The notes under the pieces were generated by a model, which was not told the DNA's origin, searched no databases, and saw only the letters and a program-made list of their open reading frames with translations. From positions 366,296,001 to 366,360,000 of the forward strand of contig OZ024740.1 in assembly GCA_964016885.1 (NCBI GenBank): a stretch of DNA of 64,000 nucleotides, read 5' to 3'. Positions 8,132 to 56,812 of this stretch are shown piece after piece. The DNA comes from Eledone cirrhosa. Lineage: Eukaryota. The position numbers were made by a program, and so were the translations under genes. The stretch's first letter is position 1. Every line of letters starts with the position of its first letter.

Positions 8132-9772
8132 ATCATCATCATCATCATCATCATCGTTTAACGTCCATCTTCCACGCTTGCATGGGTTTGGATGGGAGTT
8201 TTCCCACTTGAGGCAAGAGTGGTTGTCTCGCTCGCATAGGACTGTCTGGCGGGTTTTCTATGGCTGGATGCCCTTCCTAACACCAACCACGTTTACAGTG
8301 TGGACTGGGAGGTTTTTACCGTCTTACCTACACGGCCACATTACAGCGTGGACTGTGTGTTGTTTTGTCGTGACACCTACATGACCTCATTTGTTTCGGA
8401 CTGGATGTTCTGGTACCAACATAATTTTACATCAAAAGGGGTGGTGTAGATGGGGTGCGGGTAGTGGGACGGGGGTGTATTTTTGTTAGAGGTGTCTACT
8501 GACTGTGGTAGGTTTCACTTTGTACTTAGGTAAGGCGGGTCTTCTGTATTACTGTGTAGCGCTAAAGATCTCGGTCCAGTGACATTGTCTTGGAGAGGTG
8601 TAAGTGTGTGAGGTCGGAATTTATCAAGTCGTCCCAGGTTTTTCTGGGTCTGCCTACTCCGTGGCTACCATCTATTTTTATCGCCCTGCACTTTTTTATA
8701 CAGCTGTCGTCTTTCATACGCATCACGTGATCATACCAACGTAGTCTTCTCTCGAGTAAACAACATCTGATCCCTCTTATTTCTAATTTCTCCCTTAGAT
8801 CGTTTAAGCTTTGCCGTTCACGTATATTACTATTACACATCCAGCGGAGTATGCAAGCTTCGTTCCTCTCCAGTCTGCGTATATCCTCTGCACACAATGC
8901 CCAGGTCTCACTGCCATGTAACATTGCTGTTCGTATGCAGGCATCATACAGCCTGCCTTTCATTTTTAGAGAGAAGCCTTTAGCGGCTAATAGTGGTATA
9001 AGCTCTCTGAACTTTTTCCATCCAGTTCTGACTCTAGCTACTGTACTTTCAGAGCACCCTCCACCACTGCTGATTTTGTCACCCAAGTAACGGAAGGTGT
9101 CCACTATTTCTATAGAACCATCTGTGCAATGGAATGAGCTAGTATTCTGTGGGCACTTGCTGCTACTTATTGCACCAGAGCACCGACCACATATAAAATC
9201 TATGTTCTTAGTTAGCTTACCTGTGATCCTACTACATCTTTTATGCACCCATACTTTGCATTTGGGACATAAAATGGAGTTTCTACCTACTCCTTTCCTA
9301 CACACTGAGCATGGCCATTTTCCGGATGGAACCGGTGCCCTATTTTCCTTCCTACAAACTAGAACTTTAGTCTTAGACAGGTTAATTTTAAGGCCTTTTG
9401 ATTCTAGGCCATGCTTCCATGTTTGGCCATCGATTCAGCTATGAGCGTTAGATCATCTGCGTATAGGAGTTCTCATGGGCAGCCGGTCTTGAACTCCACT
9501 GTTATAGCCTGAAGGGCAATAATAAATAGTAGGGGGCTAAGAACGGATCCCTGACGAACACCAACTTTTACGCTAAACTCTTCGGTATATTCGTTGTTAA
9601 TTCTAACCTTGCTGACTGTTTCTTTATACATGGCTTGTATAGCTCTCTCACAAGCCATTCATCAACACCTAGTTTTCTAAGAGCCCACCAGATAATGGAA
9701 CGGGGGACTCTGTCGAAGGCTTTCTCCAAGTCGACAAAAGCTATGTATAGGGGTTTACTTTTAGCTAGGTAG
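8132..9772 (-). mobile_element. 5'-truncated RTE-type LINE with RT core
   Basis: LYIAFVDLEKAFDRVPR, VGVRQGSVLSPLLF, LLYADDL, C4HC3 finger, FRYLG, RRLRWY. (GAT)n tail at 8132. Stops and an internal deletion. Confidence 0.95.
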
Positions 9773-10818: not shown

Positions 10819-10902
<84 letters not shown>

Positions 10903-10904
<2 letters not shown>

Positions 10905-11222
10905 GGATGGTAGCTAAGATGCTTCCATAGGCGGTATGCCGGTTGAGCACTCTATGCTCTTACAGAGCAGAGTATGATATAATATAAAACGAAAAATCAG
11001 TGATGCATCTGAACTTAATTTATTGTGTGTTACAATTGTTTCGCCGGCGGACAGCTCGAGATGCGATCATTGTGTGGATCTGTCTGATTCTGGACCCGCA
11101 GGTTCGACGGACACGTCTAATGATTTCGGAGTATATTCTTCCACTGGAAGAATATACTCCGAAATCATTAGACGTGTCCGTTGAGTTCAGATGCATCACT
11201 GATTTTTTGTTTTATATTATAT
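10903..11222. mobile_element. Nested foldback PLE-like mini-element
   Basis: Outer inverted repeat 10977-11015 / 11184-11222. Inner near-perfect palindrome 11104-11184. Hammerhead 3' halves GAAAcaattgTA (minus, ~11030-11042) and GAAAtcatTA. GAGCACTC at 10945. Confidence 0.75.
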
Positions 11223-12744
11223 ATATATATTTATACATATATCATCGTTTTTACATTAGCCTTTCCTTACTAGTATGGGTTAGTGTGTATGTATGTGTGT
11301 GTGTGTGTATGTAAGTATGTGTGTGTATAAAAGCAAGTCTCCCAAGTTTTCAACCAACAACAGCCATGTTATTTACATGGCTTCTTTTCAGCAGTCAATG
11401 TCTAGAATGGATAGACAAGTATAATTAAATTACTGACCAATATGCAGTAACTCTGGATGTCTGAAACTGTGTGAGAGAGTAGGTGAGTGTGTGTTGTATG
11501 TCTACATCTATTGATAACATACATCCTCTAATGTAAGACCTAATTCTAATATCATGCCTAACTTGGTAGATGTTGGACTGACCTCAAATCAAAACCAATG
11601 AAATTTACTGAAAAGCAATCATGCTAAATGAAAGAGATCTTACATGGTCACACAATTTGCTAGAAATGACACACAAATCTCCTTCAAATTACACCTTTCT
11701 GTCCTGTATGTCATGTCTGAAATAAAAAGATTAGATGACAATGGCTGGAGCACCTGTTATCAGAAAATTCTGCTTGATCAAAGATGATAGAGTTAAACAT
11801 CAACAACAATGATGACACACACTGTCATCAAGATTGTTTAGGGAGGAAAAATACTTAACACTGGAGGATTTCATATTCTTAACATCTTTTTTAATTACAT
11901 TTGTGACAATCTTCAAGTTTTTTTTTTTTTTACAGTTTAGGGAGAGGCAGGGTTGTTATCCGGTTTCAAGATTGGTGGGATGGAGGATGGTATCCACAAA
12001 CCAGAGACATGGTCCAAATGCAGTGGGAGAACAAATTAAATACACCATTCAAGTACACCACAGTGGGATTGGAACTTGGTATACACAAAGAGCCAGAATA
12101 AATACCACAAGGTATAGAAAAAAGTAAATTAAATAATGTAGTGTTAAGTATCCTTAAAAGGACAGCCATGGCTAAAGTGTTTTTGAGCATAAGTCTCATT
12201 ATGCTTGATCTGAGGTTAGACAACAATAAACAAACAACTCCTACAGTTATTCATCACAATTGCAACATCTGACCATTAAAATTATGAACAATTGAAGCAA
12301 TATTTCAGCTTGCAGAACATACCTACAGTCCAAAGATGAAGAGAACATACCAGAATAACTTAGAAAATGATGAGTTCTTCCATGACTCTAGAACGTACAA
12401 CCAAGGATATCTTAGCTCAAAGTTAAGCATACTAGCCTAAAATAGATCATGACTTGATTTAGATCATTCTTTCTCCAAATATATAGGGGCATCCACAACA
12501 ACACATCATATGACTCTTTAACCAATGGCTGAGCTTCTATGTGGTTCCTCTGCCTACTTGAAATAGCAAGCGTATCTTCCTCAAATAAGATTTTATTGTC
12601 TTACAAAAAATATAATGGATAATGTATTTCTTGATATATTATAGCTGAAAATGTGCCTGATATGTCATGACTAGAATATCTTAGGTCATAATTCTGTTGG
12701 ACCAGGTCTGAGCTGAGGTTAAACAGTGGAAACAAAAAAAAATC

Positions 12745-13760
12745 TTTCTAACATTGACACAAAGCCAGCAATTTGTAGGAATGGGAAAATTGATTATATT
12801 GACCACAGTACTTAACTGGTACTTTATTTTACTGACCCTAGAAGGATGAAAGGCAAAATTGACCTCAGTGGTATTTGAACTCAGAACATAGAAAATCATA
12901 ACGAAATACTGTAAAACATATTGTCCAATACTCTATCGATATTACCAATTCACTGCCTTGCTTAACAACAACAATAATAACAACACTAAGATTTCAATCA
13001 TGAAACAAGTAGTTTTACACAATAATCATATCAATCTTGCTATAACATTCAACAGATAGTCATACATCAGTAGTCCTCCAATCAAACTGACCCAAAGGTA
13101 TTTTGATGCAAAGCAAACATGAGCACAAACATGGGTGTATGCTTAAAAAGTTTGCTTTATAATCATATAGCTCTAGGCTTGATCCTACTGGACAGCAACT
13201 TGTAAGAAGAATTTGATTGATGAAAACTGTACAGAAACACTTTTGTGTGTATGTTATATTATATAGACTCTTGTAGCAAAAACAATTAACAAAATTGGTA
13301 GAAAACAACAATTCCAACTTTGGTACAAGGCTAGCAATTTTGGGAGAAGGGGAAAGTTCATCATATTGACCATGGTACTTAAATGGTAGTTTATTTTATC
13401 AACCCCAGAAAAATGAAAGACAAAGTTAACCTTGGCAGGATTTGAACTCTAAACATAGAAAGTTCTAATAATATATCACAAAGTATTTTGCCCAATGTTC
13501 TACCAATAGAGCTAATCTACCATCCTCATGGTTAGCAATAATAATGGTTTCTGATTTTGGCACAAAGCCAGCAATTTAGGGGGAGGGGAAGTCGATTAAA
13601 TCGACCTCAGTGCATTACTGGTGCTTTATTTGATGACCCCGTAATGATGAAAGGCAAAACTAACCTTAGCGGGATTTCAACTCTGAACATAAAGGGCAGT
13701 AACTCAATGCAGTGAAGCATGCTGTCCGGCGCTCTACCTATAGTGCTAATCCTCCGCCCT
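12745..13760 (-). mobile_element. Three tRNA-derived SINE copies (~12745-12960, ~13315-13530, ~13540-13760)
   Basis: Reverse complement of B box (gagttcaaat) and of the core gcctttcatcctt.cggggtcgataaaataaagtaccag. Confidence 0.8.
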
Positions 13761-14446: not shown

Positions 14447-14471
<25 letters not shown>

Positions 14472-14477
<6 letters not shown>

Positions 14478-14767
14478 GTGAGGGCTTTTTTTTACAAAAT
14501 GAAAAATAACCGAGGTGTCCTACACGAGTGAAAGTATAAGGAAAAAAGATGAAATCGAAAATGCAACTGGAGTCTTATTTTTAAAAAGATATATATATAT
14601 TTATTTGGTTCCTTTACCGGTTTCACAGTTCTTCTGCTTTTCAAAAGTAGAGTTGAGATGGAGGGTCTGTGTTTTTTTTCACAACTGTCAAAAACCAAAT
14701 AAATATATATATCTTTTTAAAAATAAGACTCCAGTTGCATTTTCGATTTCATCTTTTTTCCTTATAT
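14472..14767. mobile_element. Foldback PLE-like mini-element (sibling of 16861-17232)
   Basis: Inverted arms ~14535-14610 / 14693-14767. Minus-strand GAAAccggTA hammerhead half. (TA)n flanks. Confidence 0.8.
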
Positions 14768-15585: not shown

Positions 15586-15629
<44 letters not shown>

Positions 15630-15685
15630 CTCATTTGTGTGTTATCCTTTTGCAGGGGCCATGATCATGATCATCATTTAATGTA

Positions 15686-15836: not shown

Positions 15837-16619
15837 TACATGAATTGATGTATGACATACCTCAACTGTTTTGATGGTTCAATTCCAGTATTGGCAGTCA
15901 TTTATTACAACAAATCTCAATATTTATATACCACAAATAATAACTTGATAGACTTAAATATGATGAAGAAGCGGATGTGGAGCGAGATATAAGTATAAGG
16001 AGGGGGTGAGTATGAGTAAATGCAAGAAGAAATACACATACATAAATATTTAAATGCGTAAATATCCGTGTTAGGGAAGAAAAAGAAAGAGAGATAGATA
16101 GAAGAGAAGAAAGAAGAAGAGAAGAGATAAGAAGAAGAGAGAGAGAGAGATGAGAGAAGAGGAAAGTAATCAATGAACCATATTAATCTTTGGTTATATA
16201 TATATATATAGCCCCTGCATAAGGATGACATGCAAATTTGTGAAGCATTCCATATTTTTATATGCTATATATTTTATAAAACCCTTTTTTTTTTTTTCTT
16301 CAAAACAATGTTTTCTCCTTTTTTCAAAAATAACACTTTGTTGAATTAAAGAAGAAAAAAAGATTCTTTGAATATACTTCCGTGCTGTTTCTATTCTTAC
16401 TTTATATATCGACAGTCGATCAACAAGATCCCAGACCTCATTCACATAACGAGTGGGGTGAAGCTCATCAAATCGGACCAAGAAAACAATTTTTCCATAG
16501 GTTTTTCCAATTGGTAGTACTATCTGTCAGTCAAAACTCCAGGAAGAAGGAGCAACATCAAATAAAATGTCTTGCCTAAGGATATAACGCATTGCCCAGA
16601 CTGTACTGGAGCAGTACAT

Positions 16620-16812
16620 GTATTTATTATGGCTAAGTAGTGAGTCTTATTACTCTGGTGTTTGATCTGCACACTCACAGGATCATTGGACAAGATGATT
16701 CCATGAGTGCAAAGGTGAAATTCCAGAGTAACAAGACTCACTACTTAGCCATAATTTATGAATATTTAAACTCTACTTCGGTATTGAGTACTCTTTTTTT
16801 CTTGGCTGTCAA
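16620..16812. mobile_element. Degenerate foldback mini-element
   Basis: attatggctaagtagtgagtcttattactctgg / ccagagtaacaagactcactacttagccataat arms. Tail ctctac...gtattGAGTACTC at 16786. Confidence 0.65.
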
Positions 16813-16860
16813 CTACATACAGATATATGTATGTATATGTATATATATATATATATATAT

Positions 16861-17232
16861 TAGAAAGTGAGGTTTTTTTTTTTACAAATTGAAAAATAAC
16901 CGAGGTGTCCTACACGAGGGAAAGTATAAAGAAAAAGAGATGAAATCGAAAATGCAAATGGAGTCTTATTTTTTAAAAAAATATATATATTTATTTGGTT
17001 CCTTTACCGGTTTCGCAGTTCTTCTGCTTTTCAAAAGGTGAGTTGAGATGGAGGGTCTGTGGTTTTTCTCACATCTGAGTGTGAGAAAAACCACAGACCC
17101 TCCATCTCAACTCACCTTTTGAAAAGCAGAAGAACTGCGAAACCGGTAAAGGAACCAAATAAATATATATATTTAAAAAAAAAAAAAAGACTCCAGTTGC
17201 ATTTTCGATTTCATCTCTTTTTCTTTATATAT
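16861..17232. mobile_element. Foldback PLE-like mini-element
   Basis: ~150-bp near-perfect arms centred at ~17075. tgcGAAAccggTAaagga...aataaa. (TA)n flanks. Confidence 0.85.
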
Positions 17233-17510: not shown

Positions 17511-18229
17511 GGACGGTTGGAGGGTCACTGATGAAGGATTTACTTTTTCATATGTATCCCATTTGCAACGCGCAGCTCCATTATTATCATATTTACACAT
17601 ATTTTTTCTCCTGCTGCCACCCGTCTGTTTCGTTCTTTGTATATTTACCCTTTCTAGCAGTCTCTCTCTCTGTTAGCCTCCTCCTCAACTTTTACTCACT
17701 CATTCTCTGTCACTACCTCTCCTCCTCCTCCTCTTTCCTCCTCTTTCTTCCCGCTTGACCTGTCCGATTTCTTTTCTCGCGCGTTCTTGGCCAAGCCGGT
17801 ATGAAATTTTTTTTCTCTCTCTCTCTCTCGTCTGCGACTTCACAGAACTTATGTTTATCGAATTCGCAGACCAGACCCCTTCTTCTTCCCCCCGTTAGAC
17901 CTGTGCGAAATTCCTTCCTTGCTCACATTTCAACCAGGTTTGATGGTCTTTTGTCTCTTGTTCACGATTTCACCGAGTTTATATTCATAGAAATCTGGGA
18001 CTTGTCTCTTTCTTCTCACTTTCCGTTGCTTAAACCATTTTGTTTGTTCACCCTAACGTCCCCTTTATTTACGTGTCCCAACGACTTATTTTAGCCGTTG
18101 TTCGCACCAACCTGAGGTATATGGCCCTTAAAGCGATGAAATGCCTGGGACGGTTGGAGGGTCACTGATGAAGGACTTACTTTTTCATATGTATCCCATT
18201 TGCAACGCGCAGCTCCATTATTATCATAT
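17511..18229 (+). mobile_element. Non-coding terminally redundant element A (637-bp period, 82-bp direct repeat)
   Basis: 17511-17592 repeats at 18148-18229 with one mismatch. (TA)n on both sides. Pyrimidine-rich body. Structured motif at 18075-18176. Confidence 0.75.
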
Positions 18230-18260
18230 ATATATATATATATATATAATTATATATATA

Positions 18261-19410
18261 TAAGTAGCAGCAAGTACCCACAAAATACTAGCTCTTTCAA
18301 CTGCGCAGAGGGCTCTATAGAAATAGTGGACAGCTTCCGTTACCTGGGTGACAAAATCAGCAGTGGGGGAGGGTGCTCTGAAAGTACAGTAGCTAGAGTC
18401 AGAACTGGTTGGAAAAAGTTCAGAGAGCTTATACCACTATTAGCCGCTAAAGGGTTCTCCCTAAAAATGAAAGGCAGGCCGTATGATGCCTGCATACGAA
18501 CAGCAATGTTGCATGGCAGTGAGACCCGGGCATTGTGTGCAGAGGATATACGCAGACTAGAGAGGAACGAAGCTTGCATGCTCCGCTGGATGTGTAATAG
18601 TAATATACGTGAATGGCAAAGCATAAACGAACTAAGGAAAAAATTAGAAATAAGAGGGATCAGATGTTGTTTACTCGACAGAAGGCTACGTTGGTATGGA
18701 CACGTGATGCGCATGAAAGTCAATAGCTGTATAACAAAGTGCAGGGCAATAAAGATTGACGGTAGCCACGGAATAGGCAGACCTAGAAAAACCTGGGACG
18801 AGCTGATAAACTCCGACCTCACACACTTACACCTCTCCAAGACAATGTCACTGGACCGAGACCTTTGGCGGTACTCAGTAATAGAGAAGACCCGCCTTAC
18901 CTAAATACATAGTAAAACCTACTACAGCCAGTAGGCATCTCTAACAAAATACAGCCCCGTCCCACCACCCCCACCCCATCCACACCGCCCCCTTCTATGT
19001 AAAGTTATGTTGGTGCCACAAAATCCAGGCCGAAACAAATGAGATCGTGTAGGTGTCACGAAAAAAAAACACACAGTCTACGCTGTAATGTGGCCGTGTA
19101 GGCAACACGGTAAAAACGTCCCAGTCCCACACTGTAAATGTGGTTGGTGTTAGGAAGGGCATCCAGCTGTAGAAAACCTGCCAGACAGTCCACGCTGTAA
19201 TGTGGCCGTGTAGGCAACACGGTAAAAACCTCCCAGCCCCACACTGTAAATGTGGTTGGTGTTAGGAAGGGCATCCAACTGTAGAAAACCCGCCAGACAG
19301 TCCTATGCGAGCAAGACAACCACTCTTGCCTCAAGTGGGAAAACTCCCGTCCAAACCCATGCAAGCATGGAACACGGACGTTAAACGATGATGATGATGA
19401 TGATGATGAT
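18261..19410 (+). mobile_element. 5'-truncated RTE-type LINE with ~112-bp tandem duplication in the 3' UTR
   Basis: ORF 18200..18904 (FRYLG...RRLRWYGH...GRPRKTW). (GAT)n tail. Duplication ~19073-19184 / 19185-19296. Confidence 0.95.
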
Positions 19411-25215: not shown

Positions 25216-26471
25216 ATCATCATCATCATCATCAACGTTTAACGTCCGTGTTCCACGCTTGCATGGGTTTGGACGGGGGTAGTCCCACTTGAGGCAAGAG
25301 TGATTGTCTTGCTCGCATAGGACTGTCTGGCAGGTTTTCTACAGTTGGATGCCCTTCCTAACACCAACCACATTTACAGTGTGGGTCTGGGAGGTTTTTA
25401 CCATGTTACCTACAAGGCCACATTACAGCGTGGACTGTGTGTTTTTTTGTCGTGACACCTACACGATCTCATTTGTTTCGGCCTGGATGGCGCGGCACCA
25501 ACATAACTTTACATAGAACGGGGTGGTGTGGATGGGGTGGGGGTGGTGGGACGGGGGGGGGGGTATTTTGTTAGAGATGCCTACTGGCTGTAGTAGGTTT
25601 TACTATGTATTTAGGTAAGGCGGGTCTTCTCTGTTACTGAGTACCGCCAAAGGTCTCGGTCCAGTGACATTGTCTTGGAGAGGTGTAAGTGTGTGAGGTC
25701 GGAGTTTATCAGCTCGTCCCAGGTTTTTCTAGGTCTGCCTATTCCGTGGCTACCGTCTATCTTTATTGCCCTGCACTTTGTTATACAGCTATCGACTTTC
25801 ATGCGCATCACGTGTCCATACCAACGTAGCCTTCTCTCGAGTAAACAACATCTGATCCCTCTTATTTCTAATTTTTTCCTTAGTTTGTTTATGCTTTGCC
25901 GTTCACGTATATTACTGTTACACATCCAGCGGAGCATGCAAGCTTCGTTCCTCTCTAGTCTGCGTATATCCTCTGCACACAATACCCAGGTCTCACTGCC
26001 ATGCAACATTGCTGTTTGTATGCAGGCATCATACAACCTGCCTTTCATTTTTAGGGAGAACCCTTTAGCAGCTAATAGTGGTATAAGCTCTCTGAACTTT
26101 TTCCAACCAGTTCTGACTCTAGCTACTGTACTTTCAGAGCACCCTCCCCCACTGCTGATTTTATCACCCAGGTAACGGAAACTGTCCACTATTTCTATAG
26201 AACCCTCTGCGCAATTGAAAGAGCTAGTATTTTGTGGGCACTTGCTGCTACTTATTGCACCAGAGCACCGGCCACATGTAAAATCTATGTTCTTAGTTAG
26301 CTTACCTGTGATCCCACTACATCTTTTATGCACCCATACTTTGCATTTAGGACATAAAATGGAGTTTCTACCTACGCCTTTCCTACACACCGAGCACGAC
26401 CATTTCCCAGAAGGGACCGCCGCCTTATATTCTTTCCTACAAACTAGAACTTTAGTCTTAGCCAGGTTAAT
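25216..26471 (-). mobile_element. 5'-truncated RTE-type LINE
   Basis: Intact 259-aa C-terminal ORF 25611..26390, full 3' UTR and (GAT)n tail. Confidence 0.95.
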
Positions 26472-26529
26472 ATATTTATATACATATATGTGTGTATCTA
26501 TATATATGCATATATATATAGCTGAGAAA

Positions 26530-27508
26530 TAGATGGGTAAGGTGATATAGATAGTTCAAGTAAGTGACAGAATTATCAAGCTTAGAATAGCCATAGGAAA
26601 TAGAATGGTGACAATAACATCTGCCTATGCTCCACAGGCAGGACTGAGTAGACAACAAAAGGTTGAGTTCAATGATGTACTTTTACAGACAACTTCAGTT
26701 ATTAATGAAAGAGACCTCATCATCCTGGCAGGCAACTTCAATGGAAATGTTGGATAGTACCAGAACAGATTCATTGAGTTCATGGCAGCTATAGTTGTAG
26801 CTTAAGAAAAGAAGAGGTAGTGAGGTTTCTGGAATTCTGAGATGCAAATGAACTAACCATTTGCAACACATATTTCAGGAAACTGGCTAGCCACCTAATC
26901 ACATACCAATGAGGTGAACACACATGCCAAATTGAATTCTTACTTGTAAGACAAGATAATTATTAGCAACATCAGAATAAGAACAAAACAGAACAAGATA
27001 CACAGGGTAATGTGGAGACAGAGGGTTTAGAAGCTAAAGAACCTTTCAGTTAAATATAAGTTTAGAAAGACCCTATGGGCAAATGCACAACTTCTGCTAG
27101 TCAGCTGTCAATTGGGTGGTTTTGTAGTTTTTGATACTTTAAAAGAGAGTACTAGTCTTCCCAGGGCATCAATTGTCTCTAAGGAAAGAGAGCTATTCAG
27201 GATGAAAACATGTTAATGGACAAGAGAACAATGGTACAGAATGGGTTTTATCAACCAACTGGAGAGGGAAAGAAGATGAAATATATATATACCAATACAG
27301 GAGAGGAAAACTGCTCCAAGAAATTGCAGGGAAAATATAACACAAATATAGAAAGGCAATCACAGAAGAATATATATATATCATCATTTCATCATTTTAT
27401 ATCTATTTTCCATGCTGGCATGGGTTGTATGGGTTGTAATTCTCCAAGACCAAATAGGTTGGATTGACCTCATCTTCCTCTTATTACATTCATACAAACA
27501 TACATACA

Positions 27509-33679: not shown

Positions 33680-36600
33680 ATAGGTAGTATTGGTAGAGCA
33701 TCTGACAACATGCTTTGTGGCATATAGTTTCAGCCCTTTACATTCCGAGTTCAACCTGCCAAGGTTAGCTTTGCCTTTCATCCTTACAGGGTCGATAAAA
33801 TAAAGTACCAGTAACACAATGGGGGTCGATTTCATCCACTTTCTCCTCTCCTAAAATTGCTGGCCTTGTGCCTAAATGAGAAACCATTGTTGTTGTTGTT
33901 GTTGTCTTAAAACATACCAAGGTCAACTTTACCTCTCATCCTTCCAAAGTCAATAAAATAATGCAGAGGATGGAAATATAATTTTGCCGTCTTTTATCTT
34001 TCTAGAGCTCTTGTGTATATGAAAAGCACATTTGACTTCAGCATGATTTGAACTTGGAGCTTAGATAAATTAAGTTAAATATGATAATTGTTTCTACTTT
34101 TGACACAAGGCCAACAATTACCCAGTACATTACTGGTACTTTATTTTATCGACCCCATAAGGATGAAAGGCAAAGTTGACCTCGGCGGGATTTGAACTCA
34201 AATTAGTGTTCTGTTGTCTCACTAAGTTCCACTCCTTATTTTCATAACAATAATAGTTTCATTAGATTACCATGCTTTATTTTCTTGAATGTCATGATTT
34301 ACCATATATACTCAAATATAAGCTGGCCTCTCCATTTTATGTCTGAGAAATAGGCAAAAATCCCAAACCCCGTTTATAATCCAAGGCAGGTAATCAACAC
34401 ATTTTTAGATGGTGCTGTTTTAAAATTTTCATGAGTGGAGAATATATTTATGAGGTTTTAATATTTTGATATTTATAATGTTCTAAGTGTCGTTTTGTTT
34501 CACAATTCTACTACATAATAATTTTTTTTACTGATTTCTGACTGTGTTAAAAAACAATAGGAAATACGAATTTTACATCGAAAGTGAAACTGGTGTAATA
34601 TTTACCTTCAAAGTGGAATATTTTAGCACCTTATTTACATAGAACTTTGAAGTTGGTGAAAATCAGCAAAATATTAACCTCGAATATAAACTGACTCCAT
34701 TTTATCATCGATTTGTTTTGTCACATACTTCTCAGCTTATATACAAATATATACAGTAGTTAGATTGCAGTAATATTACTAAGCAGCAGGATATTCATTT
34801 AAGTATATTGTAAGAAAGAATTAATTAGACATGTAAACATTTAATTACTTCCTTCCTGTAATTTTACATCTATACTGACATCGCAGATAGTGATATATAT
34901 ATTATAGAAGCATTCATAAACCATCAGAACAATGCATACATACTCATGATATCTATAAAATAACATTTGAGACATACCAAGAGTGGAATCACAGGTAATA
35001 TTGTATTATCATCAGAACATCATATTAAAAATATCAAGATTACATATTGGTATCTTAGTGAACCATGAAACCCATTAAATAACTACACAGTTTACATCTT
35101 AAAGACATTTTTTACACATCATTTATATTTTATATCTACATAACAGGTGAGGGAGCACATCATAGTGGTTAGAGTGTCTGGCTCATGAATATAAGGGTGG
35201 AGTTCAATTACCAGATTGGGTGGCATGTTGTGTTCTTGAGCAAAAATACTGTATTTCATATTGCTCTAGTCTACTCAGTTTGCAAAAATGAGTTGTATTT
35301 GTGTTTCAAGGGACCAGCTATGTCACACATTGTGTTATGCTGGATTTCCCTAAGAACTACATTAAGGGTGCACATGTCTGTAGAATGCTCAGCCACTTAC
35401 ACATTAATTTCATGAGCAGTCAGTGTCATTGATAAAATTAACTGGATCACACATTGTTGGAATAAGTTCGAGTGGCCATACCTGGAATACCTTTGATTAT
35501 ATGTCTAGTCAATCAGATAAGACTCAGGACTAAATGACAATAACATAATGAAGCAGCTTTTATATGTTTGCTTGACCTGCTAAGAATAGCTGCCATATTT
35601 GTCTCACATTATATCCTATAATGGTGGTGGTTTGGCAGTATCGGTAGATCGTCAGACACCATGCTTTGCAGCATAGAGTTATGGCCCTTTGTGTTATGAG
35701 TTCAAATACGCCGAGGTTAACTTTGCCTTTCATCCTTACAGGGTTGATAAAATAAAGTACCAGTGATGCACTGGGGTAATCGCTGGCCTTGTACCAAAAG
35801 TAGAAACTCCAGGGCGGTGGATTGTCCAGTATCGGTAGAGGGTTGGACGCAATGCTTTGCAGTAAAGAGTTACAGCGCTTTATGGTCTGAGTTCAATTCC
35901 AGCCTTTCATCCTTATGGGGTCGATAAAATAAAGTACCAGTAATACACTGGGATAAATGCGGGCCTTGTGCCAAAAGTAGAAACAATTATATCCTATAAC
36001 CTTAAAAGAGGAAGTACACATTAAATAACATAATTTAAAATGGAATGGTCATAACTGGAATGCATTTGATCATAAATCTGCTCAGTCAGGGTTGACTTAG
36101 AACTAAACAACAACAGCAATAATACCAGGAACAACAGCAATAATACCAGGAACAGTAACAATAACAATAACAACAGTTTACACACACAGATCCACAATTG
36201 TTCAGACAAGAGTCTTCATGATGTAACTAAATATATGATATTATACAGTCAATTAAATGTGTAGTATATAGTGTATTAAATATGGGATATCCTATAGTCA
36301 ACTGAATGTGGGATTGTATATAGCCAACTAAATGTATCATAAGGGATCCTAACTCCAGATGGAGTTATAGGGATGCTGTAGTGATTTATGCTATATATTG
36401 GATATTTAAAACTGATGGAGACCAACCCTCTTTATGTCTGAACACAGCCAATTTGTTTTCCAGAGACAGAGAGAGTGGGGACAAGAGAAAAGGAGAAAAA
36501 GATGTAGAGGAAGAATGAATCCAGTACTGGACCGGTACTTTTTTTTTTATTGACCTTGAAAGAATGAAAGACAAAGCTGACCTTAGTGGGATTTGAACTC

Positions 36601-37900
36601 AGAGTGCAGAGAACCAGAATGAATACTGCAGAGCATTCTATCTAACGTTTTAACAACCCTGACAATTCATCGTCTTAGGATATCATATCATATATTAATA
36701 TAAATGATATCATATAATCAAGTAAATATAGGGTATCATATATTTAACTAAATGTATAATGAACATAATGTATAATAATTGTTTCTACTTTTGGCACAAG
36801 GCCAGCAATTACCCAATACATTACTGGTACTTTATTTTATTGACCCCGTAAGGATGAAAGGCAAAGTTAGCCTCAGCGGGATTTGAACTCAGTCTGCAAA
36901 GGGACGTAACTCTATGCTGGAAATCATAGCATCCGACTCTCTACCGATACTGCCAATCCATGTATAATAATTGTTTCTACTTTTGGCACAAGGCCAGCAA
37001 TTACTCAGTACATTACTGGTATTTTATTTTATCGACCCCGTAAGGATGAAAGGCAAAGTTAACCTCGGAGAGATTTGAACTCAGATCATAAAGGGACGCA
37101 ACTCTATGCTTCAAAGCATGGCGTCCGACCCTCTACTGATACTGCCAATCCACCGCCCATGTATAATAATGGTCTATGTTTATGTATGTGGGTGTCTAAG
37201 TGTATGTTTATGTATGTGGATGTACATCAAATGTGTACTTGTGTATATGTATATGTGAGAATATATGTATGTGTGTGTATATATGTACGTGTGTGTACGT
37301 TTATGTCTAGGTCATGGAAGATCAGAAAAAATTGTAGGTAAAAAGTTAATTTTATTAACATATTTGGGCAATTAAAAGAGAAATCAACTTGTTTGCTGTG
37401 AAATAGGTTACATAAAGATAAGATAGTAAGTTAGCAGCTGGCTGGAAGGCACTTTTGTTTTTATTATTTCTTATCTATTTTTCCCCAACCCTAGTATAAA
37501 TTGAATCATCCCTACTTCTGTTGGGTGGGGTAATAATAGCAGTGAAGGAACATATGACTGAATGGTTCAAAGAAGTTCCCAAATGAAACCAACTGCACAA
37601 TTTATTGAAGTATTTCTGAATGGTAACCATCATCAACATCATCATCATAATAATAATAACCATTATTCAATGTCTGTAGGGCAGTGGATTGGCAATATAG
37701 TTAGAGCATCGGACAACATGCTTTGTGACACATAGTTACGGAACTTTACGGTCTGAGTTCAAATCCTGCTGAGGTTAGCTTTGCCTTTCATCCTCATGGG
37801 GTCGATAAAATAAAGTACCAGTTGTGTACTGAGGTCAATTTAATTGACTTTCCCCTCCCCTAAAATTGCTGACCTTGTGCTTAAATGACAAACCATTATT
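33680..37900. mobile_element. Cluster of tRNA-derived SINE copies (~33680-33890 +, 34085-34200 -, 35622-35990 + dimer, 36520-36675 -, 36775-37158 - dimer, 37679-37900 +)
   Basis: A box tggcagtatcggta, B box gagttcaaatcc, conserved core, tail ggccttgtgccaaaagtagaaacaattatt. Confidence 0.85.
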
Positions 37901-41634: not shown

Positions 41635-41940
41635 ATATAATAATACAAGAACGATTTGTTAAGTGTTCATTACGTTTATTGATTGGTGACACGCGTTTTG
41701 CTATTGATCAGCTCAAGGTTTGATCTGTATCGATCGGGTCCTACTCTAGAATCAAACCTTGAGCTGATCAATAGCGAAACATGCATCACTAATCAATAAA
41801 CGCAATGAAGACTTAACAAGTTGTCCTTGTATTATTATATTACACTCTGTCTAGCTCCCCACCCCGCTATTAAGGTGAACCTGAACATCGAGTGCTCACC
41901 TGGGTGAACCTACAGTAAGTTCACGTTACACTCCCTGGAT
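41635..41940. mobile_element. Foldback PLE-like mini-element
   Basis: ~90-bp arms 41635-41724 / 41751-41840. Consensus gcGAAAcgcgtgTC...aataaa. GAGTGCTC at 41890. (TA)n flanks. Confidence 0.75.
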
Positions 41941-42799
41941 ATATATATATATATATGTATAACGACTACATACAGATGGGCATACACCTACATATTTGCA
42001 ATCTGTATCAATGTACATTTATATATATATGTCCATATATATATATATAAAGATCCATTTTCATTCATTTTCATTTCATTTTACATCCACTTTTCCCTGC
42101 TTGCAAGGGTGGGACGGGAACTGATTCTGGCTTGATTTCTACAGCTGGATGCCCTTCCTAACACCAACCACATTTACAGTGAGTGCTGGGTGCTTTTTTG
42201 CCGTGGCACCTCCACGACCACTTTGCAGTGGAATGATATGGACCCCAGTCCCTATCATCTCATTTCTACAGCTGAGTAAACTGGAGCAATGTGAAATAAA
42301 GTGTCTTGCTCAAGGAAACAACACATCACCCGGTCTAAGAATTGAACTCACAAGGCCATTGCTCTAACCACTAAGCCATGTGCCTCCATAAAGATAAAAT
42401 CAAAAATTGTTTCCTTAAACTTTTAATCTGTGCTAATCATCATCATCATCATCATCGCTGTTTTACGTCAATGTCTCCACGCTAGCATGGGTTAGACGGA
42501 TTGTCCTGTTGTGGGCAATGCCAGGTCAGGTGACCATGTCTTGCTCATACAGGACTGATAATAATGATAATAATAATGATAATAATAATAATGATAATAA
42601 TTGTTAATAATTGATAATAATTGTTTCTACTTTAGGCACAAGGCCAGCAATTACCCAGTGCATTACTGGTACTTTATTTTATCAACCCCGCAAGGATGAA
42701 AGGCAAAGTCAACCTCAGCGGGATTTGAACTCAGATCGTAAAGGGACGTAACTATGCTGGAAAGCATGGCGTCCGACCCTCTACCGATCAATGTATATA

Positions 42800-45211: not shown

Positions 45212-45255
<44 letters not shown>

Positions 45256-45401
45256 AGTGGTTACACAATTGTTCTCGGTATGGTGAACTAACTGTTGTGT
45301 AACCACTTCTACCTAACTCGTCCCATGGACTGAGTGCTCTACCACTACGGATATTACCTTCCAGTGTTCTACCACTATATATATATATATATATATATAT
45401 A

Positions 45402-46711
45402 CGAGGGGGGATCAAAAAGTTTGCGGAATTTTTCAGAAAATATTCTATTTTTCAAAAAATATGATTTACCATCAATTTATTTTTTTACATAGTTGCTATC
45501 CAGGTCAATACACTTGACAAGGCGATGCTTCCAGCTTCGTAACCCGTCTCTAAAGAAAGTTGAAGGCCTTGTTCGAAGCCATGTGTTGGCAGTGTTTTTA
45601 GCTTCTTCAACACCACTAAAACAGGTTCCTTTTAGCATTTCTTTGAGTTTTGGAAAGAGGAAAAAGTCTGATGGGGCTAAATCTGGACTATAAGGTGGGT
45701 GAGGAAGCACTTCCCATCGAAATTCTCGAAGAACTTCTTTTGCAACCCGCACAGAATGCGCTGGTGCATTGTCATGGTGAAACAAGATCCACCATGAAGT
45801 TTCCCTTTTCGTTTCTTGACTAATGCCTCTTTCAGCTTCCTTAAAACATTTGCATAGTAAGCTGCTGTCACAGTTCTTTGACCTTCAAGATAATCTATTA
45901 GTATCACCCCATCTGAATCCCAGAAAATGGTGGCCATCACTTTTTGATCCGACTTTTGAGATTTGAACTTGATTGGCCCCGATGATCCACGTGGAAGCCA
46001 CTGTTTTGACTGCTGTTTGGATTCAGCATCATACTGGTAGATCCAGGTTTCATCTCCGGTGATGATTCTGGTCAGGAAATGCTCTTCATCAACTTCAATT
46101 TTGTTTAATATCGCCAAAGACAGATCACTTCGAAGAATCAGCTGATCAGGGCGCAATGGTTTTGGGACCCATCGCGCTGAAAGCTTGCTTAGTCCCAAAT
46201 TATCGTGCAGAATTGAATTTGCCGAACCATATGAAATGTCTAGGGACTTAGCTAACTGATTAACTGTTATTCTTCGATCTTCTTCAATTAAAGTCTGAGC
46301 AGCCTCAACGTTTTGGTCATTTTTTGATGTTCCTAGTCTTCCACTGCGATGGTCGTCTTCAAGGTCGTCTCTCCCTTGTTTGAATCGCTGAATCCACGTG
46401 TAGACAGCAATTTTCTTTGTAGCAGTAGTACCGTAAACTTTAACTAAAGCCTCCATAATCTGTATCCCTTTCCACTTGAGTTTCTCCAGAAACTTGATAT
46501 TCGATCTTATCTCAAAATAACTATTTTCCATTGTTCCAAAAAGAGGTTTTTTAAAGAGTGTCAGTACTGTACAATAGTCTGCACAAAACAGACTGCAAGT
46601 GACTAATAGCAAGGTAAACACCCAGTGACAATGTTCTGACATGTTTAATATTGTTTTAACCTATTTTTTTCTTACTACGATAAAATTCCGCAAACTTTTT
46701 GATCCCCCCTC

Positions 46712-46712
<1 letters not shown>
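45402..46712 (-). mobile_element. Full-length mariner DNA transposon (1311 bp)
   Basis: Perfect ~31-bp TIRs cgaggggggatcaaaaagtttgcggaatttt. TA target within (TA)n. Confidence 0.97.
45477..46531 (-). pseudogene. Mariner transposase (DD34D), one frameshift near 45790
   Basis: MENSYFEIRSNIKF...ARWVPK...ITGDETW...|HHDNAPAH...HPPYSPDLAPSDF. Confidence 0.93.
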
Positions 46713-46772
<60 letters not shown>

Positions 46773-48038: not shown

Positions 48039-48100
48039 GTAAATAAAACCCTTTTTGCACAGCCGACCATGTTATTCTTCACTCTTTCACTATATATATA

Positions 48101-48966
48101 TATTAGCTGCTAAAGGGTTCTCACTAAAAATGAAAGGCAGGTTGTACGATGCCTGCATACGAACAGCAATGCTGCATGGCAGTGAGACCTGGGCATTGTG
48201 TGCAGAGGATATACGCAGACTAGAGAGGAAGGAAGCTTGCATGCTCTGCTGCATGTGTAACAGTAATATACGTGAACGGCAAAGCATAAACGAACTAAGG
48301 AAAAAATTAGAGATAAGAGGGATCAGATGTTGTTTACTCGAGAGAAGGCTACGTTGGTATGGACACGTGATGCGCATGAAAGTCGATAGCTGTATAACAA
48401 AGTGCAGGGCAATAAAGATAGACGGTAGTCACGGAATAGGCAGACCTAGAAAAACCTGGAACGAGCTGATAAACTCCGACATCACACACTTACACCTCTC
48501 CAAGACAATGTCACTGGACCGAGACCTTTGGCGGTACTCAGTAACAGAGAAGACCCGCCTTACCTAAATATATAGTAAAACCTACTCCAGCCAGTAGGCA
48601 TCTCTAACAAAATACACCCCGTCCCACCACCACCACCCCCACCCCATCCACACCACCCCGTTCTATGTAAAGTTATGTTGGTGCCGCGCCATCGAGGCCG
48701 AAACAAATGAGATCGTGTAGGTGTCACGACAAAAAAACACACAGTCCACACTGTAATGTGGCCGTGTAGGCAACACGGTAAAAACCTCCCAGACCCACAC
48801 TGTAAATGTGGTTGGTGTTAGGAAGGGCATCCAACTGTAGAAAACCTGCCAGACAGTCCTATGCGAGCAAGACAATCACTCTTGCCTCAAGTGGGACTAC
48901 CCCCGTCCAAACCCATGCAAGCGTGGAACACGGACGTTAAACGTTGATGATGATGATGATGATGAT
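48101..48966 (+). mobile_element. 5'-truncated RTE-type LINE
   Basis: ORF 48055..48567, 3' UTR, (GAT)n tail. (TA)n flanks. Confidence 0.95.
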
Positions 48967-48988
48967 ATATATATATATATATATATAC

Positions 48989-49150
48989 TAGATAGTCAGG
49001 ACCCGACGGCTGAGCTCTTGCTGTTTCGACAGTAAATTTTCTGTCAAAATGGCAAGAACTCAGCTGCCGAGTCCCGACATCTCTAATATCTTTATACTCT
49101 ACTATCCCAAGTATCGAGTACTTAACTGAATTAATAGTCTTACTAGTTTA
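48989..49150. mobile_element. Foldback mini-element related to 2220-2402
   Basis: Hairpin 48989-49085 centred on gacag/ctgtc. Shares gacccgacggc.gagctc and the ctctacta.cc.aagtat.gagtac tail. Confidence 0.65.
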
Positions 49151-51069: not shown

Positions 51070-52386
51070 TCATCATCATCATCATCATCATCAACGTTTA
51101 ACGTCCGTGTTCCACGCTTGCATGGGTTTGGACGGGGGTAGTCCCACTTGAGGCAAGAGTGATTGTCTTGCTCGCATAGGACTGTCTGGCAGGTTTTCTA
51201 CAGTTGGATGCCCTTCCTAACACCAACCACATTTACAGTGTGGGTCTGGGAGGTTTTTACCGTGTTGCCTACACGGCCACATTACAGCGTGGACTGTGTG
51301 TTTTTTTTGTCGTGACACCTACACGATCTCATTTGTTTCGGCCTCGATGGCGCGGCACCAACATAACTTTACATAGAACGGGGTGGTGTGGATGGGGTGG
51401 GGGCGGGGGTGGTGGGACGGGGTGTATTTTGTTAGAGATGCCTACTGGCTGGAGTAGGTTTTACTATATATTTAGGTAAGGCGGGTCTTCTCTGTTACTG
51501 AGTACCGCCAAAGGTCTCGGTCCAGTGACATTGTCTTGGAGAGGTGTAAGTGTGTGATGTCGGAGTTTATCAGCTCGTCCCAGGTTTTCCTAGGTCTGCC
51601 TATTCCGTGACTACCGTCTATCTTTATTGCCCTGCACTTTGTTATACAGCTATCGACTTTCATGCGCATCACGTGTCCATACCAACGTAGCCTTCTCTCG
51701 AGTAAACAACATCTGATCCCTCTTATCTCTAATTTTTTCCTTAGTTCGTTTATGCTTTGCCGTTCACGTATATTACTGTTACACATCCAGCGGAGCATGC
51801 AAGCTTCGTTCCTCTCTAGTCTGCGTATATCCTCTGCACACAATGCCCAGGTCTCACTGCCGTGCAGCATTGCTGTTCGTATGCAGGCATCGTACAACCT
51901 GCCTTTCATTTTTAGTGAGAACCCTTTAGCAGCTAATAGTGGTATAAGCTCTCTGAACTTTTTCCATCCAGTTCTGACTCTAGCTACTGTACTTTCAGAG
52001 CACCCTCCCCCACTGCTGATTTTATCGCCCAGGTAACGGAAGCTGTCCACTATTTCTATAGAACCCTCTGCGCAATTGAAAGAGCTAGTAGTTTGTGGGC
52101 ACTTGCTGCTACTTATTGCACCAGAGCACCGGCCACATGTAAAATCTATGTTCTTAGTTAGCTTACCTGTGATCCCACTACATCTTTTATGCACCCATAC
52201 TTTGCATTTAGGACATAAAATGGAGTTTCTACCTACGCCTTTCCTACACACCGAGCACGACCATTTCCCAGAAGGGACCGCCGCCTTGTTTTCTTTCCTA
52301 CAAACTAGTACTTTGGTCTTAGCCAGGTTAATTTTAAGTCCTTTTGACTCTAGGCCGTGCTTCCATGTTTGGAATTTCTTCTCTAA
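51070..52386 (-). mobile_element. 5'-truncated RTE-type LINE
   Basis: Intact 259-aa C-terminal ORF 51472..52251, 3' UTR, (GAT)n tail. Confidence 0.95.
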
Positions 52387-55277
52387 TAATGATTCTGTTA
52401 ATTCACTGCCTTTGACTAGTACTTTATTTAAGTATGGTGTTGCTCTAATGATTCTACCATTTCACTGCCCTTGTTGGAATGACTATAATATAAGAAATAT
52501 TGATACATACTGTGTGAAAACCTAATGTGTTAGGTATGTTAGGTATTATCAGCTGGACATGTGACAGACCAAGATACTGCCAGGAAGAAGTCAGATGAGG
52601 TCATAGAAAATTAAATCACACTGATAAGATAAGAGGTACTATAGACATTTTTTACCTATATCGTCATGGAAAGTGCGCAATAAAACATTTTTTAATAATG
52701 ATAGTCAACATGAATGTTGACAATGATTATGATTATAAGGATGATGATGTTCTTGGTGAATAACAATAAAATGTAAACAAAGAAAGCTTCCCCATAAGAG
52801 GGGTGGCTCTGAGGGCTACACATAGAAAATCTACAAAAGTTAAAAAGACCACTAAGGATAAGTGCCTTCTCCGCGTTGTTCTCTTAATAACTGGTACATA
52901 CTCAGGACACCCAGTCACTTGGATCATGTTCGTAACTCTAATTCACCTTTCAACAAATTTACTGGAAGGCTGCACTTCCCTCTCCACCCTGAATTTCCTT
53001 TTAAAGTGAAACTTGAAAAAAGTCTATGAGGGTTTGCCCCAAGAAGAAAGTGTCTGTTTTCAACCTGTTTGATCTTAACTGCTGCACAACTTCATTCACC
53101 ATGGTCACCAAATAGATAAGAACTGCCTGCCCTTCCTGGACAAAGGAAGGCAGAGGGGCAATTTTCACAATGGTCTCAGTTGATAGCAGCTGTTTGACAT
53201 AACTTCACAAATTAGCAATGCTCAGGAACTGGGCAAGTGTGTGTAGAACAGTTTCCTCACTCCGTCCACATCTCAGACAGATCTGGTTGATGGAACATCT
53301 GTTCCTGTAGAGTTTATCCCAAACTAACAAATGCCGCTGGTAGCCCTGCCAGGCCAGAGATTTCTAGAAATTATCCATAGGCCTTGGGTTGAAAGTCTTC
53401 TGGAAAAAGTTTAGCCTCTTGGTTTTTGTCAATGTCCAGAGTCTCTTTGAGAACGTCACCCATTTTACCCAACACTAATTCCTCTATAGAACACAAAAGT
53501 AGAGTTTCCACTGGCTGCAGTGCCCAATTGACTGAGGGTTGTGAGCAACTGACAACATTCTAGTTGCCAAGCACTCTCTCTCAGTCTTTGTTTGACCCAA
53601 GCCAGCAACTCAGCCAAAGAGATGAGCTGGGAAAATACACATCTGATGAATGGCAACTACACCTGTTCACCACCAAAGATCAGATATGAACTGGAGTAAG
53701 GCATACCGGTCAGACATGAACTGGGGCAAGGCATGCAGTCATGCAATAATAATAATAATATGGTGGAAACTAAGGGAGTTGAAACATTGTGACAAAAAAA
53801 CAAAAAAACAACAACAACAAAACTATTGACAGTTTACCAAAGTCCCCACCTCAACTCAAACAAAGACAGACTATACCTTACCCATACACAAGGAGGACAT
53901 AACCCAAAACAAATAGAAATTTACTAGAAAATAACAAGAGTAAGCTGAGGGGAACACTAAGAAGCAAATAAAGGAAGAATGATAAATATAAAAAAAGAAA
54001 CATGAAAAGAAACAAAAAAGGTCTCTCTATAAAGAAATAGTAAGTAGGAAATAGAACCAACTTCCCTGAAACAATAGATCTTAATATAATAAAGGGAGGA
54101 GTGCGGGACTGTGTCCTGAATATATTTTTTTATCCCGTTTGTAAAATAAGTTGAATTACTTTGAATAAATAATGAATGAATATTACATAATTTATGTAGT
54201 AAATTTCGAAACTCTTGATTAAATATAAATAATTTTATTGCTTATTTCAAGATTCACTTCTTTTAAAATTTTCAAATGTCAATACTTCTGGTTATGATAT
54301 AACGGACGCTATATCATATCACTTATATAAACGTTCATATACTTCCATTGTTATGTAAGGCTTATAATTCCGTCGCTAATTTTCTCCTTTTTCGTTTTCA
54401 TGAGGATGGAGTCTTCGACTGAGGGTGGAGTCTTCGACTTGGCCTGAGCATGGACTCAAACTCAAATGAAATGAAATGAAATAACATTTCATCATTATGC
54501 AGTTTATATATAATATCGTCTTTTTTAGATGTATCATATCATGGATTACTTTACTGATTACAGAAGAGGGTGTAACACAGTCTTTCTTCAATTTCTGTGC
54601 ATATTCTCAATTACAATTTTATTTGACAGGTGTTTTTTTTGTTAGTTTAAATAACAATGTAAGGTAAATAATGGTTCCTAATATAGGGTAGGGGAAAGTT
54701 GATTATATCAACCTAGTAATTAACAGTTACTTTATTTTATTGATCCTCCCCTTCCTCAGAAGGAATGAAAGTAAAGTTGACATTGTCCGGATTTGCTAAA
54801 TGTTACAAAGTATTTTGTTTGACCCTCTTACAATTCTGCCAATCTACTACTCTAATTTTCACTAATGATAATTATAAAAATAATCATAATAATAACGAAA
54901 AATACATATTTATTTTCAATACAGAAATAATAAAAAAGAAGGAGAAACAAAAGGAAAGAAAGAGTAGGGAAATATAGAGAAAAAAAGAGAAGGATAGAAA
55001 GAAAGAAGAAAAAGATTGGGAAGGGGACGGGATGGCAAGAGCCTTGGTGTCACAGAAGCGAGGGGAGGGGTGAAGGGGGAGGGTGATTGGGCTTTGGGCC
55101 TAGGGCAAGAGTGCAGAAGTGTTTCTACATTTGGCACAAGGTCAGTAATATGAAGGAAAGGGGAAAGTTGATTATAGTGACTTCAGTATTTAACTGGTAT
55201 TATATTTGCCAGAAGGATGTAAGGCAAAGTTGGCCTTGGTCGGATTTGAATGCAGAATATGGAAGGTTATAACTAAA

Positions 55278-56412
55278 TAATAATTGTTTCTACTTTTGGC
55301 ACAAGGCCAGCAATTACCCAGTTCATTACTGGTACTTTATTTTATCGACCCCGTAAGGATGAAAGGCAAAGTTAACCTCGGCGGGATTTAAACTCAAAAT
55401 GGCAAGGGCCGTAACTCTATGCAATCAAAGCATGGCGTCCGACCCTCTACTGATACTGTCAATCCAAGGCACAAAGTCAACAATTTGAAGGGAGGGGAAA
55501 GTCGATTAGATTGACCTCAATGCACTACTGGTACTTTATTTTATCGACTCATAAAGATGAAAAGCAAAGCTAACCTCGGCAGAATATGAACACTGAACAT
55601 AAAGGACTATAAACTCTCTGCTGCAAAGCATGTTGTCCAATGCTCTACCAATACTGCCAGTCTACCACCCTATAACTAAATAATAATAATAATAATTGTT
55701 TTTACTTTTGGCACAAGGCCAGCAATTACCCAGTGTATTACTGGTACTTTATTTTATCGCCCCCGTAAGGATGAAAGGCAAAGTTAACCTCGGCGGGATT
55801 TGAACTCAGAATGGCAAGGGCCGTAACTCTATGCGTCAAAGCATGGCGTCCGACCCTCTACCGATACAGCCAATGCCATAATAATTGTTTCTACTTTAGG
55901 CACAAGGCCAGCCATTACCCAGTGCATTACTGGTACTTTAATTTATCGACCCCGTAAGGATGAAAGGCAAAGTCAACCTCGGCGGGATTTGAACTCAGAT
56001 CGTAAAGGGACGTAACTATGCTGGAAAGCATGGCGTCCGAATAATAATAATAATTATTTCTACTTTAGGAAGATGGCCAACAATTTGAAAGGGAGAGGGA
56101 AAGTCGATTAAAACGACCCCAGTGTATTACTGGTGCTTTATTTTATCGACCCCGTAAGGATGAAAGGCAAAGCTAACCTTGGCGGGATTTGAACTCAGAA
56201 CGCAAAGGGCCATAACTCTATGTTGCAAAGCATGGCATCCGACCCTCTACCGATACTGTCAATCGACCGCCCTATCTACTGCCATAATAATAATAATAAT
56301 TGTTTCTACTTTAGGCACAAGGCCAGCAAATACCCAGTGCATTACTGGTACTTTATTTTATCTACCCCGTAAGGATGAAAAGCAAAGTCAACCTCGGCGG
56401 GATTTGAACTCA
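55278..56412 (-). mobile_element. Head-to-tail array of ~6 tRNA-derived SINEs
   Basis: Repeated units separated by (TAA)n. tataactaaataataa at 55268 and 55671. Confidence 0.9.
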
Positions 56413-56812
56413 ATAATAATGATTTCATTTATTAGCCACAAGGGCCGACATGTAGGGGACAATACAAAGACAGGGACAGTGGGGGTTTACAATAAGGTCG
56501 AGTAAAAGTGCACAATGGCAAGACTAATTTAGGCACTACAACGCTATTAGCGCCTGTTTTCCACTGGACTGACAGCTAATAGCGTTATAGTGCCCTAATT
56601 TAACAATAGGATATAAAACAGTACGTTTCATTTAACTTACGCAGCATATTTATTTGTTTACATGCTCAGACTCTTCTGTACACACACACACACAACATTT
56701 AGGAAAACGGAAACAAAATACACAAATAAACAAAACAAAAAACAGACATTTTATTTCTATCGTAATCAAGTGCGCTAAACCTATATTGTTTACATTCTGT
56801 GTTTTTCTACGG

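Follow-up and report, generated by a model that had tools for sequence, protein, structure and literature searches.

Why do short inverted repeats in this genome turn where they do? The window, which is the whole 64,000-nt stretch of Eledone cirrhosa DNA analysed here, contains hairpins at 2284-2402, 11104-11184, 16925-17232, 41635-41840 and 48989-49085. An initial annotation read these five as inverted insertions of hammerhead-bearing Penelope-like elements (PLEs), rendered ribozyme-dead when the nascent cDNA folded on copied hammerhead stem II, primed itself and replaced the 5' half of the core. The hairpins and their GAAA strings were present at these coordinates, and the annotation was right that they are inverted insertions of hammerhead-bearing PLEs.

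Searches of the genome carrying the window (3.0 Gb, rich in microsatellites) identified the hairpin arms as the 3' ends of repeated families. Exact anchor matches numbered 1,647 for the focal family (F1; hairpin at 11104), 19,927 for F2 (hairpins at 2284 and 48989), 13,877 for F3 (16925 and 14458) and 341 for F4 (41635), with 0 in the reversed-pattern control in each case; F5 (palindrome at 2522) gave 7,624. Because the arms come from such high-copy families and the reversed controls were 0, the five annotated hairpins lie far above chance. They are short head-to-head PLE insertions spanning four families, and F5 is a fifth family in the window.

All five families end at their 3' side in either of two ways, tailed or untailed, which is the PLE signature described in the available text of PMC8557442 and PMC3846280. 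Other traits of endonuclease-bearing PLEs were likewise observed: a tail that may be present at one end, pLTRs in direct or inverted orientation, and 5' truncation. RT or GIY-YIG frames were linked to four of the five families, for F1 weakly. F3 has RT and then GIY-YIG in one orientation upstream of the repeat, with matches to RVT_1 (E 2.6e-7, copy L360) and GIY-YIG (E 1.5e-8); a CxxxCxxC linker precedes this endonuclease, which may serve as a lead towards Neptune or Nematis only. F2 and F5 had matching RT/GIY-YIG frames in several copies by tblastn (Pfam: F2 weak, E 0.069; F5 blank), and a single F1 copy (L344) carried a candidate GIY-YIG-like fragment 2.25 kb upstream, across microsatellites. 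No RT or GIY-YIG frame was found in six extended F4 loci. In full copies of F5 (L164) and F3 (L360) the tail continues into the ORF, so that the short copies correspond both to the 3' repeat and to the transcript leader. As elements these are ordinary PLEs; the literature already documents inverted pLTRs, one-sided tails and hammerhead pairs on opposite strands, and contains a self-priming proposal. Different PLE families were often stacked within one TA microsatellite (L143, L201, L033, L013), and L348 held a sixth PLE-like family with an RT/endonuclease frame ~1.1 kb upstream of an F1 anchor and an Inr-like CCCCAGT just before a CTGAAGA core.

The TA flanks on the inverted arms might also suggest MITE-like DNA transposons bounded by terminal inverted repeats, and, since palindromes are difficult to assemble, assembly artefacts might be suspected. 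Both are scarcely credible here: the centres vary, the ends are unequal, uninverted 5'-truncated copies are many, RT/GIY-YIG frames are linked to the repeats, and neither fixed terminal inverted repeats nor a uniform length was found. Against an artefact, moreover, the arms differ by point changes, and a depth step with loose ends was also present in contigs of the public runs X1 and X6.

The focal insertion (~10903-11225), which sits between (TG)n and (TA)n repeats, is bigger than the initial annotation stated; the hairpin at 11104-11184, with its 37-bp perfect arm and 1-nt centre, is its middle. On the minus strand, the long tailed arm (10903-11147) runs from the putative start site through a degenerate hammerhead, AATAAA and the no-tail end (10973) into a ~70-nt tail with a (CA)n end, and is 95-96% identical to the uninverted copies L050 (255 nt) and L013 (175 nt). 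The short untailed arm (11141-11225, plus strand) covers +1 to ~+38 and then jumps to +128..+173, as given by two separate alignments (11141-11184 and 11181-11230); the part it skips contains the entire hammerhead motif. Hammerhead-skipping deletions with a sense jump occurred in 5/42 F1 arms and 0/14 F4 arms, with no common ends. The fold centre (11141-11147) is a natural 3-bp micro-palindrome at the predicted transcription start, placed by its sequence and by the pile-up of 5' ends there; the predicted +1 is 11145 on the minus arm and 11143 on the plus arm, and the focal centre is +2 of both. Where F1 tails meet the (TA)n flank they finish in (CA)n runs that differ in length (10880-10903 in the window, and F1 loci), possibly reflecting stutter at initiation.

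A DPE-like motif lies on the minus strand at 11111-11118, exactly at +28, in 3/3 reference copies against a background of 3e-5 per nt (motif definition from the available part of PMC2377424). Its mirror copy, at 11170-11177, immediately follows the annotated string GAAATCATTA, which runs into the DPE. In uninverted parents GAAATCATTA occupies +19..+28, upstream of stem I, and no core (CTGANGA) was found upstream of it in those F1 parents. The parent of the focal hairpin, the comparison proposed by the annotation itself, thus has no hammerhead at that position. F1 does possess a degenerate type I hammerhead-like motif, recognized by eye from the parents, on the minus strand of the long arm (11110-11031): a CCGTCGA core followed by GAAACAATTGTA, with a long loop II, GAAAC and a palindromic stem III. 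This 3' motif has two core changes, was not recovered by free fold, and is likely inactive in the focal copy, judging by its sequence.

The other palindromes differ in where they turn. The F2 palindrome (2213-2403) has a tailed arm from +1 and an untailed arm from +7, its start site lying inside hammerhead loop II. The F5 palindrome (2457-2781), with an intact CTGATGA hammerhead on both arms, had escaped the annotation (2522-2780), as had an asymmetric F3 insertion (14470-14766; palindrome 14458-14766) with a tailed arm from the start site and an untailed arm from +77. A second F3 palindrome (16860-17229), that of the hairpin at 16925-17232 with its 95-bp perfect arm, is centred at the start site and carries a whole U3-A8 hammerhead on both arms. 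In the F4 palindrome (41635-41946) the untailed arm starts at +36 and the tailed arm at +68, placing the centre in loop II, off the family hot spot. A decayed F2-like palindrome (48989-49140) matches the F2 reference at 83% over 42 nt and has tail-like sequence at its right, identified by eye. Every one of the six mapped window copies has one tailed and one untailed arm. Two further hairpins lie at 16626-16755 and 45253-45310.

The hammerhead anatomy described by the annotation, a centre in or just 5' of stem II with the 5' half-core missing, was accordingly correct for some copies and wrong for others. It was found at 2284-2402 and 41635-41840, where the centre is inside the long loop II, and probably at the decayed copy at 48989. 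It does not apply to the focal hairpin, nor to 16925-17232, where the whole motif (core TTGAAAA, U3-A8) is on both arms and the centre falls ~45 nt upstream of stem II. Many palindromes retain both hammerheads and are therefore not generally ribozyme-dead. Parents of F5 have a canonical hammerhead core, those of F2 and F3 the U3-A8 variant, and those of F4 a CTGATGA or CCGACGA core with a long loop II. The core, GAAA and stems I-III of a type I hammerhead were found by sequence and fold in F2, F3 and F5, whose self-cleaving hammerheads are predicted motifs, and by sequence in some F4 copies. An Rfam scan of the window listed 150 of 152 matches: these were to microsatellites and hairpins, none of them reached the gathering score, and a hammerhead family was not among them. 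The CTGANGA..GAAA pattern occurred 9 times in the window against 4.7 expected, which alone is not significant. A further hammerhead-like motif, CTGAAGA..GAAA, lies at 1532-1568, with the same family in L350.

We then mapped where arms end. Arms were collected through exact matches to 3' anchors, taken in sequence along contig C1, and copies met by chance at other loci were added; loci picked by full-length match (L001-L030, L165, L211-L241) were left out for their own family. The 78, 76, 84, 30 and 62 arms of F1-F5 were each extended against three natural reference copies, and 142 insertions were considered, 16 complex ones being set aside. Among inverted insertions, the longer arm started within -6..+9 of a single site in 9/29 (F1), 38/43 (F2), 16/24 (F3) and 8/15 (F4); uninverted arms started within the same range in 11/35, 7/16, 18/41 and 0/15, respectively. 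Only about one third of F1 ends were at the site, and the F2 ends at -6 and -3 represent alignment overrun into the inverted arm. The +1 positions were picked after the pile-ups had been seen, which makes binomial P values optimistic. No such site was found in F5 (0/15 inverted and 0/40 uninverted arms, with one subfamily mis-mapped), and F5 stands outside the start-site claim because 11 uninverted arms of one subfamily were falsely placed at +59.

Genome-wide counts for F3, in equal 7-nt intervals with filters of similar strictness, gave 2,210 ends at the site, 109 in stem II (a figure that includes indel variants) and 58 in a control interval that sees one subfamily only. Some arms might also run off at the hammerhead cleavage site, where the interval had 333 ends versus these 109 and 58; but its filter alone passes TA flanks, one control count was 83, and the excess was less than two-fold after a rough correction for the filter. 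In a few arms (14693 in the window; F2-F5 loci) the end coincides with, or immediately follows, the predicted hammerhead cleavage site or the palindrome of stem III.

Inversion points are thus not uniform, as the annotation had anticipated, but they pile up elsewhere than in stem II, at a promoter-like site, which only F2 has within loop II. Arm ends in stem II plus loop II were not enriched, with 9 observed against 9.5 expected in F1, 1 against 2.4 in F3 and 4 against 5.7 in F4. F2 discriminates between the models because a stem II fold keeps the whole of loop II, whereas ending at the site does not: the stem II snap-back junction was seen in 2 of 14 matches genome-wide, against 2,712 palindromes centred at the start site. 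Two F2 genomic copies with exactly the structure expected of a cDNA that folds on copied stem II, self-primes and replaces the 5' half of the core, together with the F2 and F4 window copies centred in loop II, speak for the annotated mechanism. Nevertheless, F2 palindromes turn on the 3' side of loop II, leaving the 5' strand of stem II uncopied, and the focal GAAA is outside any hammerhead. Stem II folding is therefore refuted as the main route and very hard to uphold as a general account; it may be a rare side route.

What the site is was examined through core-promoter motifs. F3 has TATAAAA at -30, F2 a TATA-like box at -30/-31 plus Inr, F1 the Penelope DPE at +28 plus CCAAT at -66, and F4 an Inr, each in 3/3 references; a TATA, Inr or DPE element at canonical distance from +1 was thus present in these four families and absent in F5. 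The DPE consensus was read, from the available part of PMC2377424, only after +1 had been fixed. Since core-promoter motifs occur at textbook spacing and uninverted copies start there too, the pile-up site is likely the transcription start of the element RNA, as read from sequence. An extra G before +1 outnumbered A by 11:4 and 8:1 among the first 100 rows (background 233:237; P 0.06 and 0.02); this mild enrichment hints weakly at a cap-templated base, and flanks can mimic it. The depth step and loose ends in the X1 and X6 contigs fall at 1416-1419, adjoining +1 (1417); these two runs are from one study and possibly the same source, and assembled contigs cannot reveal transcript starts. Runs X4 and X5 gave one contig each. 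According to the accessible text of PMC2377424, transcription of D. virilis Penelope starts inside its own pLTR.

F1 ends were also considered as a splice donor and rejected, given that one subfamily has no donor sequence and the Inr/DPE spacing fits better. In F5, a pyrimidine tract and a 3' splice-site-like CAG lie ~70 nt upstream of the hammerhead core (L164:430-445; L146, L147), and the F5 start may lie upstream of an intron.

The site could instead be a processing site or a fixed RT block, or the stubs could have been re-copied from a few short masters. Such readings draw on the indirect assignment of the RNA start, on F5, which has no site, and on the many copies that read through the site, but we regard them as improbable: promoter motifs are canonically spaced in four unrelated families, and the many different junctions at the site (F2, F3) argue against few masters.

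How the two arms arise can be read from their tails. Of 126 scoreable inversions, 113 had exactly one tailed arm, one had two and 12 had none. In the one-tailed group the tailed arm was the shorter in 48/113, the longer in 26/113 and symmetric within 8 nt in 39/113; it consisted of tail only in 11. Part of the tailed/untailed asymmetry close to the 3' end comes from the method, as very short untailed arms are undetectable with the anchors used, and short tailed arms could be full palindromes whose centre was later lost on one side. Subfamily markers agreed between the arms in 19/20, 11/11 and 37/38 cases (67/69 pairs) against ~50% expected, so the arms come from one template or have been homogenised; self-copying or later gene conversion would also produce such agreement. 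Junction calls were without filler in 111/167.

These observations fit a model to which we give slightly better than even chances, in which centres cluster at the likely RNA 5' end, where RT probably runs off, and two primers act on one leader with subsequent joining of the cDNAs. The PLE protein would bind the leader of its own transcript (start site, hammerhead, tail, then ORF) and nick both strands of a (TA)n target. Both nicks would prime on this one RNA, at the far and the near end of the tail, respectively; neither cDNA would extend beyond the 5' end of the RNA, though either may stop short of it, and their 3' ends would be joined directly or via a few shared bases. Were only one primer used, the result would be an uninverted stub sharing that 5' end. 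The hammerhead would be a passenger, the fold point not being set by the ribozyme. Such twin priming fits the tails, the asymmetry, the marker agreement, the filler-free junctions and the in vitro start sites described below, and self-copying with one-sided deletion stays compatible with the data.

Self-copying would proceed by run-off at the RNA 5' end; at the start site the tailed cDNA would then fold back on, or jump to, its own strand and use it as template. The second arm would be cut at the AT-rich no-tail site, and later one-sided deletions would shorten an arm. Marker agreement, the 39/113 symmetric pairs and the micro-palindromes at the F1 and F3 start sites are all consistent with it, and the available text of PMC3846280 already proposes self-priming for PLE junction palindromes. 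However, plain self-copying does not yield shorter or tail-only tailed arms, because the second arm must be contained in the first, and in the 48 insertions with a shorter tailed arm, as in the 11 with tail only, the second arm has sequence absent from the first. Frequent extra deletions that spare the +1 end of the other arm would be needed, and the focal centre loop is just 1 nt; this route thus appears unlikely, though a serious contender. Self-priming could also occur on an antisense transcript made by a bidirectional promoter, a route suggested for rotifer PLEs; it would agree with the promoter at the junction and with what PMC3846280, in the part available, proposes for head-to-head junctions. 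It seems very improbable in our case, as it leaves unexplained both the shared 5' end of uninverted sense stubs and the two fixed 3' ends that match sense-strand in vitro start sites.

The two-primer model resembles L1 twin priming, in which two target nicks prime on one RNA and the head-to-head inversion is joined over short homology. L1 inversions involve little duplication and a variable internal primer, whereas here neither start site varies and the two arms usually hold duplicates of one leader. Another parallel is the anole PLE (Anolis Poseidon PAc), which in vitro cuts both strands, extends them and initiates at two internal sites bounding the tail, according to the accessible text of PMC11167929; it also shares the AT-rich target, the template at the pLTR-ORF junction and dispensable hammerhead cleavage. 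Inverted products and the 5' ends of genomic copies, which are treated here, are not covered in that text.

Canonical endonuclease-bearing PLEs (Penelope/Poseidon, Neptune, Nematis), as presented in the available portions of PMC8557442 and PMC3846280, likewise have RT followed by GIY-YIG, a hammerhead near the 3' end, 5' truncation, an inverted 5'-truncated copy, a one-end tail, (TA)n targets and a promoter inside the pLTR. In contrast, tails here are ~65-110 nt rather than 30-40, most sampled copies are tiny stubs, and 5' ends concentrate, like inversion centres, at a single promoter-like site, a feature absent from those portions. The hammerheads resemble the metazoan PLE hammerheads of PMC4209133 (available part) in being type I with a palindromic stem III and a U3-A8 core variant, that source describing minimal and U3-A8 core variants as well as Schistosoma motif pairs 100-700 bp apart on opposite strands. 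Unlike those, F1, F2 and F4 have loops II of ~35-55 nt, and the predicted F2 promoter overlaps stem II with the start in loop II.

The accessible text of PMC8557442 names the origin of tandem and inverted PLE structures as an open problem. No report of a PLE 5'-end pile-up at a start site, or of twin priming for PLEs, was found in the literature searched, which included few subscription papers and was represented by main texts (PMC3681739 and 10.64898/2026.07.22.740005 among them, in part), supplements to which may contain insertion-end data. A search for 'Penelope-like' with 'snap-back' and 'retrotranspos' returned no paper from a partial full-text literature. Tentatively, and with somewhat less than even confidence, we suggest that PLEs routinely misfire on their own leader: a dimer would prime twice at the tail boundaries, with run-off at the capped 5' end and joining producing the inverted pLTRs that define the class. 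If so, the tens of thousands of genomic stubs would form a fossil map of PLE start sites, and PLE promoters would be mappable from DNA alone. With its start inside loop II, F2 would retain a ribozyme in the 3' repeat but have none in the 5' repeat. Applied to the in vitro system already available, the model predicts the product ends, which arm has the tail, and that ribozyme structure is irrelevant. Such palindromes could also pass wrongly for MITEs or microRNA hairpins.

Several other repeats occur in the window. Copies of one LINE 3' end, presumably RTE-like, lie at 8562-9434, 18140-18904, 25611-26555, 48043-48567 and 51472-52461, and an 841-residue endonuclease/RT frame at 58343-60868 is one we take to be CR1-like. 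Transposase frames between 57-nt inverted ends (45376-46738) belong to what we assume is a mariner-like element. A U6-like fragment at 16207-16259 scored 42.9 bits against a cut-off of 44, with a weaker one at 15610-15672. A dispersed ~200-nt repeat, which we presume to be SINE-like, was present at 12808-13706, 36541-37160 and 55179-56489, tandem near 55-56 kb, and a tandem array of a 25-nt repeat occupies 63197-63996.
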